From positions 596,106 to 660,105 of the forward strand of contig CASDWE010000002.1 of assembly GCA_949284685.1 (NCBI GenBank): a DNA stretch of 64,000 nt, written 5' to 3'. Shown here piece by piece: positions 10,100 through 33,688 of the stretch (its first letter is position 1; each line of letters begins with the position of its first letter). The notes under the pieces were generated by a model, which saw only the letters and a list, made by a program, of their open reading frames with translations, was not told the DNA's origin and did no database searches. The stretch comes from an uncultured bacterium. GTDB lineage: Bacteria > Bacillota_I > Bacilli_A > RFN20 > CAG-826. The position numbers were made by a program, and so were the translations under genes.

Positions 10100-10134
10100 T
10101 TAAAAGTAATTATCGTTACGAATCATCAATTAAA

Positions 10135-10160
10135 AGCGGTGACATATCATCGCTTTTTTA
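10135..10160 (+). terminator. Rho-independent terminator
   Basis: agcggtga-cata-tcatcgct is followed by TTTTTT. The stem sequence is the same as the terminator at 6817. Confidence 0.5.
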
Positions 10161-10220
10161 GTTTTACTATATTGACAAATTAAAACAGTTAATACAGAAT
10201 AAATATAAGGAATTTAATCT

Positions 10221-28774: not shown

Positions 28775-28849
28775 GGCCCCATGGTCAAGAGGTTAAGACG
28801 AGACCCTCTCAAGGTCTAATCCCGAGTTCGATTCTCGGTGGGGTCGCCA
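28775..28849 (+). tRNA. tRNA-Glu, anticodon CUC as read by eye
   Basis: The acceptor stem ggcccca/tggggtc has one G-U pair. The Glu-type D-arm tggtcaagaggttaagac is present. The anticodon arm is agacc-ctCTCaa-ggtct and the T-arm is ccgag-ttcgatt-ctcgg, with an encoded CCA. Confidence 0.65.
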
Positions 28850-29120
28850 TCATTTGAATATTGTAAAAATTATTTTAGACAGTTATAGATTAAAAGAAAT
28901 GGCTGATTATATAAATAGAAAAAAGATATTTAATTTTTTAGCAGGAGAATTTTCGAAAGTTAAAGATGGGGAAAATTAAAAAAATATTAACATTTTAAAT
29001 TGATATTTCCCAAGCTCAAGAATGTTCATATTAATCTTAATTATTTTTAAAATGGTGTGGAAGTCATAGGTTAAAATGCAGCTGGTATATTTAATTTTGA
29101 TGAACTTTACTCATAATTAT

Positions 29121-29176
29121 TAGTTTTTCTCTCATTTTGTGTTATAATTTATGGGAAAGAGGTTGAATATGAGAGA
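29121..29176. repeat. Inverted-repeat module ttctctcat-N32-atgagagaa spanning the Fic promoter and start codon
   Basis: The left arm tagtttttctctcatttt (29121-29138) and right arm atatgagagaa (29166-29176) enclose an extended -10 (TGtTATAAT, 29140-29148). A second copy flanks the 3' end of the gene. Confidence 0.45.
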
Positions 29177-30218
29177 ATTTGATTATAGTAAACTAAAATA
29201 TAAATCTTGGAATAATGAAATACTTCTTAAGGTAGCAAATATTCATGAAGCAAAGGGAAAACAAGAGCTATATTTGGCTCAAAAACCTGATGATTTGAAT
29301 AGATTAGTTGAAATTGCTAAAATACAAAGTACTGAAGCAAGTAATGCAATAGAAGGAATTAGAACAACTGATTCAAGATTAAAACAACTTATAAACGAAA
29401 AGACTACTCCAAAAAATAGAAACGAAAAAGAAATAGCAGGATATAGAGATGCATTATCAACTATTCACGATAGTTTTGAATATATTCCATTAACGCCTAA
29501 TTATATTTTACAATTACATTCTATTTTATGTTCTCATAATGATGAAGTTAATGATGGTGGGAAATTTAAAAATGTCCAAAATTATATAAGTACAACTGAT
29601 GAAAAAGGTAATAGTTATACTTTATTTACCCCGCTTTCACCATTTGAAACTCCTTTCGCAATTAAAAATTTATGTGATGAATATAATAAGGCGGCAGAAA
29701 AAAAAGAAGTTGATCCACTTATTTTAATCCCCATTTTTATTCATGATTTTTTATGTATACATCCATTTAATGATGGTAATGGAAGAATGTCTAGGTTACT
29801 TACAACTTTACTTTTATATAAATCTGGATATTATGTTGGAAAATATATTTCTTTAGAAGCAAAAATATCAAAGATAAAAGATTTATATTATGATGCCTTG
29901 TTCGATTCTCAACATGGATGGCACGAAGGAAATGATAATCCAACCCCATTTGTTAAATATTTACTAAGCATTATTGAGATGGCCTATGATGATTTTGAAC
30001 AACGAGTAAAACTAATATCTAAAAAGCTGTCTGCATATGAACTGGTTGATAATGCAATTAAGCAAAAACTTGGCAAAATTACAAAATCTAATATTGCGGA
30101 ATTATGCCCAAGTTTATCTATTAGCGCTATTGAAAAAGCAATGGCTAAAATGGTAGAGGAAGGAAAACTTGAAAAACAAGGTTCTGGTAAAACAACATAT
30201 TACATAGTGAAATTATAG
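29169..30218 (+). CDS. Fic/Doc-family protein (AMPylation/adenylyltransferase fold)
   Basis: The canonical Fic motif HPFNDGNGRMSRLL is present. A GAAAGAGG RBS lies 6 nt upstream of the ATG at 29169. The track's 29151 start is in the same frame. Confidence 0.8.
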   Translation: MREFDYSKLKYKSWNNEILLKVANIHEAKGKQELYLAQKPDDLNRLVEIAKIQSTEASNAIEGIRTTDSRLKQLINEKTTPKNRNEKEIAGYRDALSTIHDSFEYIPLTPNYILQLHSILCSHNDEVNDGGKFKNVQNYISTTDEKGNSYTLFTPLSPFETPFAIKNLCDEYNKAAEKKEVDPLILIPIFIHDFLCIHPFNDGNGRMSRLLTTLLLYKSGYYVGKYISLEAKISKIKDLYYDALFDSQHGWHEGNDNPTPFVKYLLSIIEMAYDDFEQRVKLISKKLSAYELVDNAIKQKLGKITKSNIAELCPSLSISAIEKAMAKMVEEGKLEKQGSGKTTYYIVKL

Positions 30219-30270
30219 TTTCTCTCATTTGACATAATATTTTACGAGAAATTTTTTAAAAATGAGAGAA
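30218..30270. repeat. Second copy of the inverted-repeat module (ttctctcattt-N26-aaatgagagaa), immediately after the Fic stop codon
   Basis: tagtttctctcattt (30218-30232) and aaatgagagaa (30259-30269) repeat the motif seen at 29121-29176. Confidence 0.45.
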
Positions 30271-30563
30271 CCACCTCATAAAAGTACGATATGTCTGATA
30301 TAAACTTAGAAAATTTCTAGGTGTATCCAGACTTTTTTAATTTATATCCCCATCAAAACAGCTTTGAGATCTCCATATGGTGAGAAGGGTACGGGGTGAG
30401 CCACAAGGCCAAGATTGGCGGGCAAAGAAGAATACTATGGGAAATATCGATAAAACCTCAACTTTATATAGGGGTTGCAAAGTTGGCAAGGGGGTTGCGC
30501 TTTATAACTAGGGGTCGCAACCGCATTAAAATAGGTATTCTTGTCCATACGATATAAAAATAT

Positions 30564-30599
30564 AAACTTGAACAGAAAATAACTAGTTCAAGTTTTTTA
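30564..30599 (+). terminator. Rho-independent terminator, possibly bidirectional
   Basis: acttgaac-agaaaataacta-gttcaagt has an 8-bp perfect stem and is followed by TTTTTT. It is preceded by an A-run. Confidence 0.55.
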
Positions 30600-31004
30600 T
30601 CAATTAGTGGATAATTTAAACGTGTACGTATCTTTAAAAAGATTGTTTTATTCGATAAACTTTAATACAAGTTGTTAAATTCACAGCTTAGGATTGGAAG
30701 GTTTTTTATGTCTCACATCAATTAATTAAAGAATCATAGAAGTTTTAACAATAAATTAGAGTTTAACATCGAAAATAGGTCTATTTAAAGGAATTAAAAA
30801 GTAGCATAACGAACTGAGTATAAACAAGAGATGTAAAACAAGAAAAATCATATATTTAATATTTTTATCAAAAAAAAGCTTGATAATTATGATTCTTTTG
30901 TTATTCGTTTTAAAAATATTTGATGTTAATAATTTAAATTATCATAAAGACACGAATTAGATTGCTATAGCAAATAAAATACATATAAATTTAAATAAAA
31001 TCAC

Positions 31005-31026
31005 TGCAAAACTGACTTATTTTGTG
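31005..31026 (+). promoter_or_regulatory. Conserved upstream motif TGCAAAACTGACTTATTTT (copy 1), about 25 nt upstream of an extended -10 (TGaTAAAAT, 31046-31054)
   Basis: A near-identical 19-mer recurs at 38292-38310 upstream of another envelope-protein gene. Confidence 0.35.
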
Positions 31027-31088
31027 TACTCTTTTTCAAATATTTGATAAAATATTTAAGTCAGAAAAAATGAAAGGAGTGACAATTA

Positions 31089-33688
31089 ATGGAGAAAAAA
31101 TCTTTTTTATTTTTAGCGGTAGTTTTTTCGCTTCTTCTTGCTGGATGTAATAATGTTGATAATACATCTAGCGAGAATTCATCTACAACAAGTGTTGGTG
31201 GTAGTTCATCTTCTTCAAGTGAAGTTAACGTTAATCCACCATCATTTTTATTAGGTAAATTTTATGCTCCTACTGGAATACTTACCGTAAACGAAAAAGA
31301 AGCTGTTTTAGATGATTTAACTTTATCTTATATTGATTATGATGAAGCCGAAGAAATATTATATTTAGAAAATTTTAATGGCGGAGATGCATATCGTTTA
31401 TATCTTTCTAACAGTGAAAAAATGGAAGTCATTTTAGATATTCAAAATGGAGAAAATTTTGAAATTATTGATACTTTTATGCCAGATATCACTCAATTTG
31501 TAGGTACATACACTGCGTATGGTGATTCTAGTCCTTATAATATTCCTATCGTTATTACAGATGAATATGTTAGTGATTTAGATACCTTTACGGTTAATCA
31601 ACCACTTTATTCTTATGGTCTTATGATAATGATTATTACTATGTATCAACATATTTTGCATATATCGATGGTGAATTAAAAACAATGATCGACATCTTAG
31701 ATTACGAAGATGATTATCTTTATTATTCTTGCTATTTGACTATCAATAATGGGATTGCTTCGCTTTATGATGTTCTTTATGATAGCGAAGCATATTATGC
31801 TGATCTATCATTTGTATATGGGACTTATTTTGTTGATGATAATAAAACTTTATCGTTTGAATATTCTCCAGTTTATGATGAAAACACATGGGAATATTCT
31901 ATTAACTCAGAATTGATGATTGATGGAGAATCGTTCAACATTGAACTTATTTATGATAATGGTTCTTATCTAAAAATTTATAATGACAGCAGAGAAGCAC
32001 TTCTTCAATCTACCGCTTATGGATTAAAGTGGATTGAAAATAATAAAATTAACTATTATCCGTATAATACTCTTGAACATTTGGTTGGGACATATAAAAA
32101 TGAAGTTGGTTTTGTATATAGTTTTCAACTCGACAATGCGAATTTAATTGATGGAACACTTCTAATTAACAATCAGCAAAATGAATTCGAAGTAGTTATT
32201 TTTGAAGATAAATTAGGCATTTCGACCCATGTTGATGGATATAATGAAAATGTTGTATTTATCGAATTTAAAACAAATATATCTATAGAAATGTATGCAA
32301 ATGAATCTTTTTCCTATTTAATTAATTACGATGCTTTTTTAGAAGCTTTCCAACGAACTTATTTTCAAATTGTTTATACATCAAATGGATCCATAGTTCA
32401 TTTTTATAATGTTGATTCTAATTTAACATTAAGTTCTAATAATCAAACTTTTGAAGGATATTTTAAATATAATCCAAGAGAAGATTATCCAAAACTTGTT
32501 TATTCTGATTGGTCGATAAGTGTTATCGATTATGAAAATAAAATATTTGCTATGACTAATAACATCGATGGAAAAATAAAGTATTTATTTGATATATCTT
32601 TTTTTGATAATCTAGATAACAAAGATTACACTAACGGAAAAGAAAAAATATCTTTTATTTATGATAACGAGAAAATTAATTTAGATTATAAAAATGAAAA
32701 TCTTTCTTTTGTTTTAATTCCCATTTATGATGCATATTCTTTTTCGTATTTAATTGCTGTTGATTTTGAACTTGCTGGTGAGTATTTAGAATTAATTTAT
32801 TCTGAAGGTGGGCAATGGACAGAATATATTTTGGAAAACGAACAATATATTGCAAATGATAGTTATATTCCACTTGATACATTTAACAAATTAGTTGGCG
32901 TATATAAATATGAAGGACAATATGGTGTCGAAGGTTTCGAACTTACTAGCGATGGTCATTTTTACGCTGATACCTTAAATGAAAAAGGTGATGGATTAAT
33001 TTATCATCAAGAAATGGAATATCAATTACAAATGTATCCTCTTGGTAATGGTGAAGTTTCTCCTGTTATTTCCTTTTATTATGATGGAATGTGGATTAAT
33101 TGTTATTTTGAAGATTATTCTTTACTTGTCGTTGAAACTAGGTATGTAAGAGAAGAATTATTTAATTATAGTGGTATTTATGTCGATTCAACTAACACTA
33201 GCATAATTGCTATTTACCAAAACAAAATAATGATTAATGGAGTAGAAGCATTAATTAACAACATTAAAATTGTAGATGATACATTAAATATTGAAGTGAC
33301 AATAAATGGTGAAATATCAACAATTATACTATCAACTGTCGATGGAGTTAAAAAGATAACATATAACGATATTGAACTAATTTTAAATGATGTTAATTAT
33401 AGTTCATTTGTTGGTACTTATACCGATGAAAGTGGCAACACTTATACATTTGATAACCATTATGGATTAGGTGGTATTATTAACGGATTTGAACTAACCT
33501 ACACATCTGTCTCAAGTGGATTGCCAACAGTGTATACTGATTTTACTGTCATATTAATGAACGGACATATTACTTTAAAATTCAGTGGTATAAGCGAAAC
33601 TTATTATTTAGAAATGACCGATACTGGAGTTATAGCATCGCTTGAAAGTAGCATTCCTCTTCCACCCCCACCTCCACCAGTAGGATAG
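31089..33688 (+). pseudogene. Tyr/Asp-rich surface lipoprotein gene interrupted by a -1 frameshift near 31615-31640 (fragments 31089-31679 and 31685-33688)
   Basis: The first ORF has a signal peptide and lipobox LLAGC and ends after the out-of-character tail LMIMIITMYQHILHISMVN. The second ORF lacks a signal peptide. Its frame is open upstream of its ATG as ...SYDNDYYYVSTYFAYIDGELK, the same composition as the rest. The shift maps to a CTTATGgtCTTATG direct repeat. Both parts carry FVGTYT-type repeats. Confidence 0.45.

Follow-up and report, generated by a model that had tools for sequence, protein, structure and literature searches.

What is a short, GC-rich patch of non-coding DNA doing behind a Fic gene in an AT-rich genome? 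The question is raised by the 64-kb stretch of bacterial DNA analysed here (the window), in the 870-nt intergenic gap that follows the gene (30219-31088; 27.6% GC). Within this gap, the GC content of positions 30360-30530 is 46.2%, with flanks at about 22-28%, and it peaks at 53.7% over 80 nt. The other non-coding GC peaks listed at that level coincide with tRNA genes. An initial annotation, made from the sequence alone, had pointed out this segment, called it a relic, and offered three readings: a structured small RNA, a ribozyme, or a fragment of foreign DNA of higher GC content. The contrast in composition is real, the term relic is apt, and it is the third reading that fits. We put at about 85% the probability that the patch is the attR-proximal end, some 150 bases long, of a prophage that was inserted at the 3' CCA of tRNA-Glu(CTC) and has for the most part been deleted. 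A decayed prophage end is an ordinary kind of genomic scar. Its evenly spaced repeats would be a conserved, unstudied feature of the attachment arm of this phage family.

The patch as a probable prophage remnant

The patch is not an assembly artefact of the window, since an independent Logan assembly (L001) carries its sequence at 100% identity; Logan run ERR10610652 contains an identical contig. The 64-kb window contains no further copy of it. A blastn search with 30280-30620 gave no match to annotated plasmids and a single 26-nt chance match to annotated phages. The coding content of the patch is small, as had been claimed from a single open reading frame of about 46 codons: the short frames over it have 44, 53, 50 and 37 codons.

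We propose that a temperate phage integrated at the 3' CCA of tRNA-Glu(CTC), and that the prophage was later almost wholly deleted, in which case four pieces would have survived. The first is a hairpin terminator just after Fic (30284-30338, + strand), absent from the initial annotation, whose hairpin at 30293-30338 has a folding energy of -14.3 kcal/mol (z = -3.6). Window positions 30284-30349 are 80% identical to positions 4762-4825 of L337 (E = 8e-10), a decayed element where the homologue of 30284-30338 starts 5 nt past the tRNA-Glu(ctc). We regard this hairpin as the probable left-end terminator of the element. The second piece (30333-30387, +) is a scrap of an internal intergenic segment of intact elements, with 79% identity over 56 nt to L326 (8703-8758) and L329 (6662-6717; E = 2e-5).

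The third piece (30400-30453, +) is the 3' relic of a phage gene encoding an AP2-domain protein. It consists of the last 17 codons (ATRPRLAGKEEYYGKYR) and a TAA stop, and its in-frame translation ends in RLAGKEEYYGKYR before the stop. In tblastn searches these 17 residues are 71% identical to L085 and 76% identical to L086, at the C-termini of AP2-domain proteins. They resemble many database proteins (P0003 and P0016, ending in RLAGEEEYYGKYR), and blastn gives 80% identity over 49 nt to gene ends in L326-L330. Here the patch is indeed a fragment of a known gene, the outcome that the initial annotation had named as contrary to its own proposal. An extension of the AP2 gene 5' of 30399/30400, prompted by the likeness of 'GYGVSH' to 'GVRGVH', was discarded: the best local score lies below the shuffle mean and is equalled by 97 of 100 shuffles.

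The fourth piece is a complete terminal module (30454-30547, +), made of direct repeats and a terminal arm. The repeat units are GGGGTTGCAA at 30471-30480, GGGGTTGCGC at 30491-30500 and GGGGTCGCAA at 30511-30520, each starting 20 nt after the previous one. The arm, CCGCATTAAAATAGGTATTCTTGTCCA (30521-30547), ends in CCA at the crossover junction and would be the element half of attR. The three G4-T-(T/C)-GC repeats previously noticed by eye are thus all present, as GGGGTYGC at 30471, 30491 and 30511 on the + strand. Over 107 nt, window positions 30442-30548 share 88% identity with the right end of element L327 (9063-9169; E = 7e-33), and the module is 85% identical over 89 nt to L326 (10182-10270). 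Together with the AP2 gene end, this match bears out the reading of the patch as foreign DNA of higher GC content.

The window copy is a remnant, not a functional element. A tblastn search of the 64-kb window with six recombinase sequences found nothing at E <= 0.01, and the lack of an integrase gene there makes the relic probably inert. It is presumably still GC-rich only because its decay towards the 28% GC of the host is incomplete.

Other copies have decayed at the same place. A strain of the same species (L002, 97% identical) lacks window positions 28859-33475, a difference of 4.6 kb, and shows at the tRNA site only a 96-nt integrase fragment that starts 5 nt past the tRNA and is 78% identical to residues 154-185 of integrase 2 (E = 9e-12). 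In L337 the order is tRNA, terminator, relic of the C-terminus of integrase 2, cargo, DUF4238 and AP2. Both decayed elements begin right after tRNA-Glu(ctc), in the same orientation.

Intact relatives and the integration site

The family was defined from L085, L246, L326, L327, L335 and L341. Intact elements carry, in this order, lysis genes (holin and XhlA), small HTH/Zn-ribbon and SHOCT proteins, two tandem large serine integrases, and variable cargo, which often includes an AP2-domain DNA-binding gene. At the right end come the repeats, an arm of about 27 bp ending in CCA, and the tRNA-Glu terminator of the host. Searches against PHROGs identified the holin (E = 6e-29) and assigned both recombinases to the integrase family phrog_95 (E = 1e-119 and 3e-138). 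Their Pfam domains are Resolvase, Recombinase and Zn_ribbon_recom. One relative, L338, carries HsdR and GmrSD defence genes upstream. The window would belong to this two-integrase family on about 200 nt of homology.

The site of insertion can be read from one pair of loci. The empty site L034 reads tRNA-Glu ...ACCA followed by TATTGAAAGCAATGGTTTGATAC, and the occupied site L246 reads ...TTGCCA followed by the same TATTGAAAGCAATGGTTTGATAC, the two loci being aligned over L246 5712-6516 and L034 7780-8584 (E = 6e-145). The two sequences show that integration in this family takes place precisely at the CCA that ends tRNA-Glu(CTC). Homology among the elements likewise ends at CCA(T/A).

In the window, tRNA-Glu(CTC) (28775-28849, +; identified by Rfam and ARAGORN) lies 1.7 kb upstream of the module, in the same orientation, and its 3' CCA, the integration target of the family, would be the attB side of attL. 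Homology to L327 ends at 30548, from which the presumed host-side sequence reads TACGATATAAAAATATAAACTTGAAC. By analogy with the relatives, the right junction would fall at 30547|30548; the sequence around it has no significant match in L003, the closest other species. Since the CCA of the tRNA is the insertion point, the 1,698 bp between it and the displaced right junction (28850-30547, +), Fic included, would be inserted DNA, left over from one or more integrated elements.

A search for the left ends of intact prophages in 11 IMG/VR loci revealed no tRNA in the 7 kb upstream of the integrases, and scanning for the exact pattern of the left-end terminator gave no match.

The repeats as probable accessory sites

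The GGGGTYGC motif occurs five times in the whole window, with 0.24 occurrences expected from shuffled sequences, none of which reached five in 100 trials. One of the two matches outside the patch is the 3' end of tRNA-Glu (28840). The repeat unit is nevertheless no copy or mimic of that end: GGGGTCGCAA and GGGGTCGCCA agree at 9 of 10 positions, but by coincidence, as the same units are found in another host, where the tRNA has ACGGACTACCA at its end.

Modules of the window's type, which we call type A, were also found in L085, L246, L335 and L341. Their conserved blocks are a lead-in, CTTTATATA, three GGGGTYGCAA units and the arm, GCATYAAAATAGGTATT..TTG.CCA, the units and the arm being invariant in a six-sequence alignment (A3). 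Every family member found has three to five direct repeats with a period of about 20 bp at its right end, the spacing being mostly 20 nt (range 18-22). The start of the last unit lies 36 nt from the CCA in the three cases checked (the window, L085 and L246), and the repeats span 28-77 bp from the crossover. The units themselves differ: GGGGTYGCAA in type A, GGGGTWTCG in L086 and L331, GGGTGTCG five times in L087, and CAAGGGTGCGT four times in L345. In these sequences, geometry is conserved while the unit sequence varies. Other viral matches to the triple-repeat pattern are unrelated, namely a 20-nt tandem repeat in L082 and clusters of GGGGTCGCAA with a 10-nt period in the AT-rich L083 and L084.

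The neighbours of the module also differ. It directly follows AP2 in L085, L086, L087, L246 and L335, a 148-aa ORF in L327 and an HI_0787_N gene in L331. In L326 about 3.8 kb of cargo separate AP2 from the module, and L341 has the module with no AP2 homologue in 12.8 kb. Judged by its position in these elements, the module is a mark of the element end rather than of any one gene.

We infer that the repeats are probably accessory protein-binding sites beside attP. They would lie on the P arm, just outside a core attP of about 50 bp, where either integrase or the small HTH protein might bind. Once bound, they would help to assemble or to direct the synapse for integration or excision.

One might instead regard the repeats as operators or promoter elements of an inward promoter on the minus strand, bound by a phage HTH regulator and without any role in recombination. 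A minus-strand TTGCCA-17-TAAAGT does lie between units 1 and 2 (30489-30461), and similar hexamers can be seen by eye in L327, L326 and L085. Furthermore, L326 and L329 have a 54-aa minus-strand ORF just inside the module, HTH-like by eye though with no Pfam match, which is preceded by three related units, (G/T)TGAGCAA, spaced by 21-22 nt. But the gene inside the module is mostly on the plus strand and variable, so that there is no constant gene to regulate. The candidate promoter has a weak -10, and the count of promoter-like sites around it equals that expected from shuffled sequences. A constant distance of 36 nt to the crossover CCA suits recombination better. We thus consider this explanation unlikely, if the most serious of the competitors.

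Less probable still is that the neighbouring AP2-domain protein binds the repeats, for example as a homing-endonuclease-like enzyme or as a regulator on its own 3' flank. AP2 domains bind DNA (the Pfam match here, at E = 3e-4, is below the family cut-off), and the DNA-binding modules of the protein match PHROGs that carry an HNH endonuclease annotation. The repeats also start 0-40 nt past the stop codon in L085, L086, L087, L246, L251, L335 and the window. Against this reading stand the type-A repeats of L341, which has no AP2 homologue, the distance in L326, and the C-terminally extended members (L088, L248-L250), where the 240 nt past the stop show no obvious repeats.

Direct repeats numbering three to five, with a period of about 20 bp and next to very AT-rich DNA (30599-31088; 21.8% GC), also recall the iterons of a replication origin, where the AT-rich DNA would be the unwinding element of an excised phage or plasmid-like form. 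This is very improbable. By analogy with L034 and L246, the AT-rich DNA beyond the junction would be host intergenic sequence; no Rep-like gene was noticed beside the module in any member; and a constant register to the crossover is unexpected for an origin.

Returning to accessory recombination sites, a bolder version can be entertained, which we hold tentatively and think more apt to fail than to stand. Three to five repeats phased at 20 bp, in fixed register to the CCA, might form an undescribed class of accessory site for a two-integrase system at tRNA-Glu. The window relic might then be an orphan half-site array, still able to bind, or recombine with the help of, the proteins of a sibling prophage. 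Our literature search on paired serine recombinases with direct repeats or with integration at tRNA-Glu found nothing specific.

RNA readings of the patch

Like tRNA genes, the patch stands out by its GC content in an AT-rich genome; a terminator lies downstream of it; and a local hairpin is predicted within it. These features would favour a stand-alone structured small RNA or ribozyme, ended by the terminator at 30564-30598. The Rfam scan and covariation check that had been suggested lent it no support. Covariance models of Rfam 15 identified no family in 30290-30600 at gathering thresholds. At E <= 10 there was no match inside the GC-rich patch and three chance-level matches over 30150-31150, the sole one within 30290-30600 being a weak mir-70 (E = 2.1; 30288-30337), which corresponds to the hairpin after Fic. 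ARAGORN found no tRNA or tmRNA gene in 30290-30600. Minimum-free-energy folding of 30340-30605 is not unusual on either strand (z about -1.8). RNAalifold on six homologues gave -7.5 kcal/mol with 15 pairs, a covariation term of +0.19 and no compensatory pair in which both sides had changed; the conserved columns are those of the direct repeats, not of helices. The 7-bp hairpin reported earlier (GGTTGCG...CGCAACC) does belong to the minimum-free-energy fold, which is unexceptional (z = -1.6). It is a consequence of the near-palindrome TTGCAA within the repeat unit, and its pairing is not conserved.

With the 5' third of the patch a fragment of a coding gene, the segment missing from the sister strain L002, no plus-strand promoter-like site upstream, ordinary folding throughout (z = -1.8, -1.8 and -1.6), and neither Rfam matches nor compensatory changes, the small RNA and the ribozyme are largely refuted. 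An array of type III toxin-antitoxin RNA (ToxI-like), in which RNA repeats of about 30-40 nt stand in tandem just upstream of the gene for a toxin endoribonuclease, with a terminator in between, was discarded as well: the 10-nt units here are separated by unrelated 10-nt spacers, no ORF of at least 30 aa starts within about 420 nt past the terminator, and the repeats sit at the element end in every homologue. The window thus loses a candidate non-coding RNA.

Comparison with known recombination systems

Repeated sites beside the core, integration at tRNA 3' ends and remnants left by tRNAs are familiar from lambda and from P4-like islands. The P and P' arms of lambda and the islands at tRNA 3' ends depend on tyrosine integrases with short direct arm sites. 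In contrast, the enzymes here are serine recombinases, and no long duplicated 3' segment of the tRNA flanks the element.

Among serine recombinases, the res subsites II and III of Tn3/gamma-delta and Sin are extra recombinase-binding sites that build or regulate the synapse, and the ends of IS607-family transposons contain several subterminal direct repeats. The enzymes of these systems are devoid of the large C-terminal domains of the integrases found here. Moreover, res subsites are dimer sites made of inverted repeats, whereas ours are direct repeats, with binding by a recombinase only putative.

The CcrA/CcrB system of SCCmec likewise combines two adjacent large serine recombinase genes with variable cargo and integrates at the 3' end of a conserved housekeeping gene. 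However, its target is rlmH (orfX) and it is not a phage, whereas the present elements target a tRNA and carry holin and XhlA.

A further parallel is with phages of the phiC31 type, whose integrases have the same Resolvase, Recombinase and Zn_ribbon_recom domains. In phiC31, Bxb1, A118, TP901-1 and SPbeta the integrase gene adjoins the attachment site at the prophage end, as here. Identity between phage and host at attP/attR is a short core in the phiC31 type; here the junctions share CCA(T). The differences are that there are two tandem integrase genes instead of one, that integration occurs at the CCA with which a tRNA gene ends, and that the window keeps the end alone, its integrase being gone. 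Finally, characterised large serine integrases are described as needing only sites of about 40-50 bp (PMC12286644), and the three to five phased repeats at 28-77 bp from the crossover lie outside a site of that size. Accessory sites here would thus be atypical. If they are real, the family would present an 'arm-type' architecture in recombinases thought to be limited to minimal sites of about 50 bp. They would then be of some interest to those who engineer serine integrases, because these enzymes are valued for their presumed short and simple sites.

For this family of paired-integrase temperate phages of gut Bacilli (RF39-like), the integration site, the exact right junction and the conserved sub-terminal repeat array are newly defined. 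Decay of one such prophage at tRNA-Glu(CTC) would account for the patch, the two terminators, the position of Fic and the 4.6-kb difference from the sister strain.

The probably displaced terminator and Fic

The terminator claimed at 30564-30599 was found at 30564-30598 (+; -10.1 kcal/mol, z = -3.9). Its stem of 10-12 bp is A/T-rich and followed by T6; with so few G-C pairs, it escaped a simple terminator scan. The hairpin that follows the module in L246, L326, L341 and L087 corresponds to the terminator behind tRNA-Glu in the empty site L034. By this analogy the terminator would not be part of the relic: it is probably host DNA, the native tRNA-Glu terminator, displaced 1.7 kb by the insertion. 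Compared with the terminator in L003, it shows no significant similarity.

The Fic/DOC-family gene (29151-30218, +; Pfam Fic E = 4e-19) likely starts at ATG 29169 and is probably cargo or a later insertion in the remnant. Together with 28850-29118, it lies between the tRNA and the candidate left-end terminator, and three origins are conceivable for this segment: cargo, a second integration in tandem, or an insertion at a later time. Homologues of Fic with about 60% identity are common in IMG/VR contigs. A link between Fic and the patch was rejected, since 80 IMG/VR loci with such a homologue contain neither the AP2 gene, nor the repeats, nor similar downstream DNA. A 59-nt repeat flanking Fic was considered as a cassette boundary, but it proved to be an operator-like palindrome surrounding the -10, common to the Fic homologues. 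One homologue, L170, has an additional copy of this operator-like repeat downstream.

A prophage end beside tRNA-Glu

The window comes from the chromosome of an uncultured gut Bacilli bacterium and has a GC content of 28.5%; its best match is the MAG BRZ_SM__bin58 (L002), at ~97% identity. Downstream of the Fic gene (29151-30218) lie 870 nt without a long ORF, in which GC rises to 46% at 30360-30530 and peaks at 53.7% in an 80-nt window; elsewhere in the window, the non-coding GC peaks reaching this level fall on tRNA genes. GGGGTYGC repeats start at 30471, 30491 and 30511, and the motif occurs five times in the whole window against 0.24 expected. A hairpin terminator follows at 30564-30598 (-10.1 kcal/mol, z = -3.9), and a second, overlooked by the initial annotation, lies just 3' of Fic (30293-30338; -14.3 kcal/mol, z = -3.6). 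Recomputation thus confirmed the GC-rich segment, repeats and terminator described earlier, and the identical patch sequence is present in L001, an independent Logan assembly.

What remains here is the attR end of a prophage that has decayed next to a tRNA gene, as is very commonly seen. Scanning IMG/VR for the exact pattern of three GGGGTYGC spaced 20 nt found the locus L085, where three GGGGTCGCAA units stand immediately 3' of a 202-aa ORF ending in ...AVKARLAGEEEYFGKYR. Read in frame, window positions 30400-30453 give ...ATRPRLAGKEEYYGKYR, immediately before the window's own repeats. Given the resemblance of the two endings, the 5' part of the patch is, as judged from its reading frame, the 3' end of a gene homologous to the L085 ORF; upstream of 30399 no significant similarity to this gene was found. 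The gene's product has an AP2 domain and two Zn-ribbon-like repeats, and similarity in these DNA-binding modules links it to phage families carrying the annotation HNH endonuclease. The foreign DNA that had been suspected here is therefore a phage AP2-type gene end followed by a prophage end module.

Intact elements and the repeat module

Many close relatives of the AP2 protein were present in a large protein collection, and their contigs yielded intact elements. L327 has genes for HTH_SB and SHOCT proteins and for two large serine recombinases of 431 and 525 aa, together with the AP2 gene and a 148-aa ORF; then comes a stretch matching window 30442-30548 at 88% identity over 107 nt (E = 7e-33). 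In L326 and L329 the same end segment (85%) lies ~3.8 kb further along, past ABC ATPases and a nucleotidyltransferase, and the same repeats accompany the recombinase pair of L341, which lacks an AP2 gene. Hence, the repeats are a property of the element end and not of the AP2 gene. Upstream holin and XhlA genes, and the match of both recombinases to phrog_95 'integrase', identify the elements by gene content as temperate phages.

Every member found has three to five direct repeats with a period of 18-22 bp, mostly exactly 20, and then a ~27-bp arm terminating in CCA; in all three members checked (the window, L085 and L246), the last unit starts 36 nt before this CCA. The unit is GGGGTYGCAA (type A) in the window, L085, L246, L326, L327, L335 and L341, GGGGTWTCG in L086 and L331, GGGTGTCG (five copies) in L087 and CAAGGGTGCGT (four copies) in L345, and the spacers between units are unconserved. 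Such constant geometry, with lineage-specific units and freely varying spacers, is the pattern expected of protein-binding sites.

Other arrays were also seen. In L326 (at 10100-10180) and L329, three extra (G/T)TGAGCAA units, spaced 21-22 nt, separate the type-A module from a minus-strand 54-aa ORF that is HTH-like by eye; counting them, L326 has six consecutive GCAA-containing units. Just inside the tRNA-proximal (left) end of a decayed element, L337 (4840-4945) has two direct TACACGGCGTA copies 19 nt apart and an inverted copy 60 nt upstream. On the left arm, these may correspond to the repeats of the right arm; clusters of the unit were found in no locus other than L337. The AT-rich viral contigs L083 (1720-1900) and L084 (3990-4170) have intergenic GGGGTCGCAA clusters with a 10-nt period and inverted copies, which proved unrelated to the family.

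Integration site and decay

We collected 46 tRNA-Glu 3' flanks from GltX-anchored loci. In L034 the flank reads ...GGACTACCA|TATTGAAAGCAATGGTTTGATAC... and leads into a terminator, and the DNA that follows the module of L246 reads ...TTATTGCCA|TATTGAAAGCAATGGTTTGATAC... Since the two loci have TATTGAAAGCAATGGTTTGATAC in common and L246 5712-6516 aligns to L034 7780-8584 (E = 6e-145), L034 is an empty and L246 an occupied site, and the hairpin after the L246 module is the host's own tRNA terminator. The insertion point of the family is therefore exactly the CCA end of tRNA-Glu(CTC). Two decayed copies agree with this target: in L337, tRNA-Glu(ctc) precedes a terminator, the remains of the integrase-2 C-terminus, cargo, DUF4238 and AP2, with all of these in one orientation, and in L002 a 96-nt fragment that begins 5 nt after tRNA-Glu shares 78% identity with integrase 2 residues 154-185 (E = 9e-12).

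In the window, tRNA-Glu(ctc) (28775-28849) is followed by 1,698 bp of inserted DNA (28850-30547), the probable right junction (GTCCA/TACG) at 30547/30548 and, at 30564-30598, the probable native tRNA-Glu terminator. Within the insert are Fic and its pair of operator-like palindromes, a terminator (30284-30338) sharing 80% identity with the tRNA-abutting one of L337, a 55-nt remnant whose homologue in L326 is internal intergenic DNA, the AP2 3' relic and the complete terminal module. Fic, placed between the tRNA and this candidate left-end terminator, may have been carried as cargo, have come with a second, tandem integration or have been inserted later. No recombinase gene was found anywhere in the 64-kb window. 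L002 lacks window 28859-33475 (4.6 kb; compared with L002 2080-2171), and its integrase fragment stands there instead; it has lost Fic and the relic, and host genes too: the gene for a 196-aa lipoprotein is gone, and a 667-aa ORF, missing its first ~590 codons, is cut to the last ~73. The two strains most likely represent divergent decay of one ancestral insertion.

The sole tRNA-Glu difference between the window and L002 is the discriminator base, which adjoins the integration junction: G in the window (GGGGTCGCCA; 28846, position 72 of 75) versus A in L002 and L003 (GGGGTCACCA). Recombination at this CCA might have left the change. At its GltX/tRNA-Glu(ctc) locus (L005, 7205-10732), a rumen Bacilli MAG has a tandem pair of large serine recombinase genes that share 33-44% identity with those of the family, lie on the opposite strand and start ~345 nt past the tRNA, beyond its terminator. 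It is probably a different two-integrase element in the same neighbourhood.

Role of the repeats

These comparisons showed the homology, architecture, target and junction. The repeats would serve as accessory sites for protein binding, placed on the P arm immediately beyond the core attachment site, and their binder may be one of the two integrases or the small HTH/Zn-ribbon protein. The window's own repeats are most likely inert. The repeats might instead serve as operators for an inward promoter, as suggested by a weak minus-strand site (TTGCCA-17-TAAAGT) and by the TGAGCAA units before the small, by eye HTH-like, minus-strand ORF in L326. Binding by the AP2 protein itself is weakened by L341 and L326. 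Against origin iterons, no Rep gene was noticed beside the module in any member and the AT-rich DNA lies beyond the junction.

The structured small RNA proposed in the initial annotation is largely refuted. Rfam gave no match in the patch at gathering thresholds and, at E <= 10 over 30150-31150, three matches at chance level, the sole one inside 30290-30600 being a weak mir-70 on the Fic terminator hairpin; ARAGORN found no gene in 30290-30600. Neither strand folds with unusual stability (z ~ -1.8), and RNAalifold on six aligned homologous copies gave -7.5 kcal/mol with zero compensatory pairs, the conserved columns being the direct repeats and the terminal block, not helices. The 7-bp hairpin noted earlier arises from a near-palindrome, TTGCAA, within the repeat unit.

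Among known systems, the repeats come closest to the arm-type sites of tyrosine integrases and to the accessory sites that small serine recombinases and IS607-family transposons possess. Three features set the family apart from characterised large-serine-integrase systems: two integrase genes, a tRNA 3' end as target and phased sub-terminal repeats. By contrast, the characterised enzymes are reported to require no more than ~40-50-bp sites (PMC12286644). Our literature searches found no description of this two-integrase tRNA-Glu prophage family. The patch is thus an explained relic and not an RNA, of low interest in itself; the repeat array is a modest lead.

Accompanying genes

Defence or toxin genes, carried either by the family elements or by adjoining islands, lie upstream of the two integrase genes or their remnant: HsdR (type I), GmrSD, CTD6 and MC2 in L338 (1-10000) and an RHS/YD-repeat toxin gene in L331 (1-10000). 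Around Fic, the inverted repeat TTCTCTCAT...ATGAGAGAA is present in two copies that share a 42-nt offset: at 29127-29177, spanning the Fic -10 region and start codon, and at 30220-30270, beginning 2 nt past the stop. It looks like an autoregulatory operator, possibly bound by the winged-helix C-terminus of Fic. IMG/VR Fic homologues have an equivalent palindrome (TTTCCCTTA..TAAGGGAAA) around the -10, and one of them, L170, has a second copy downstream.
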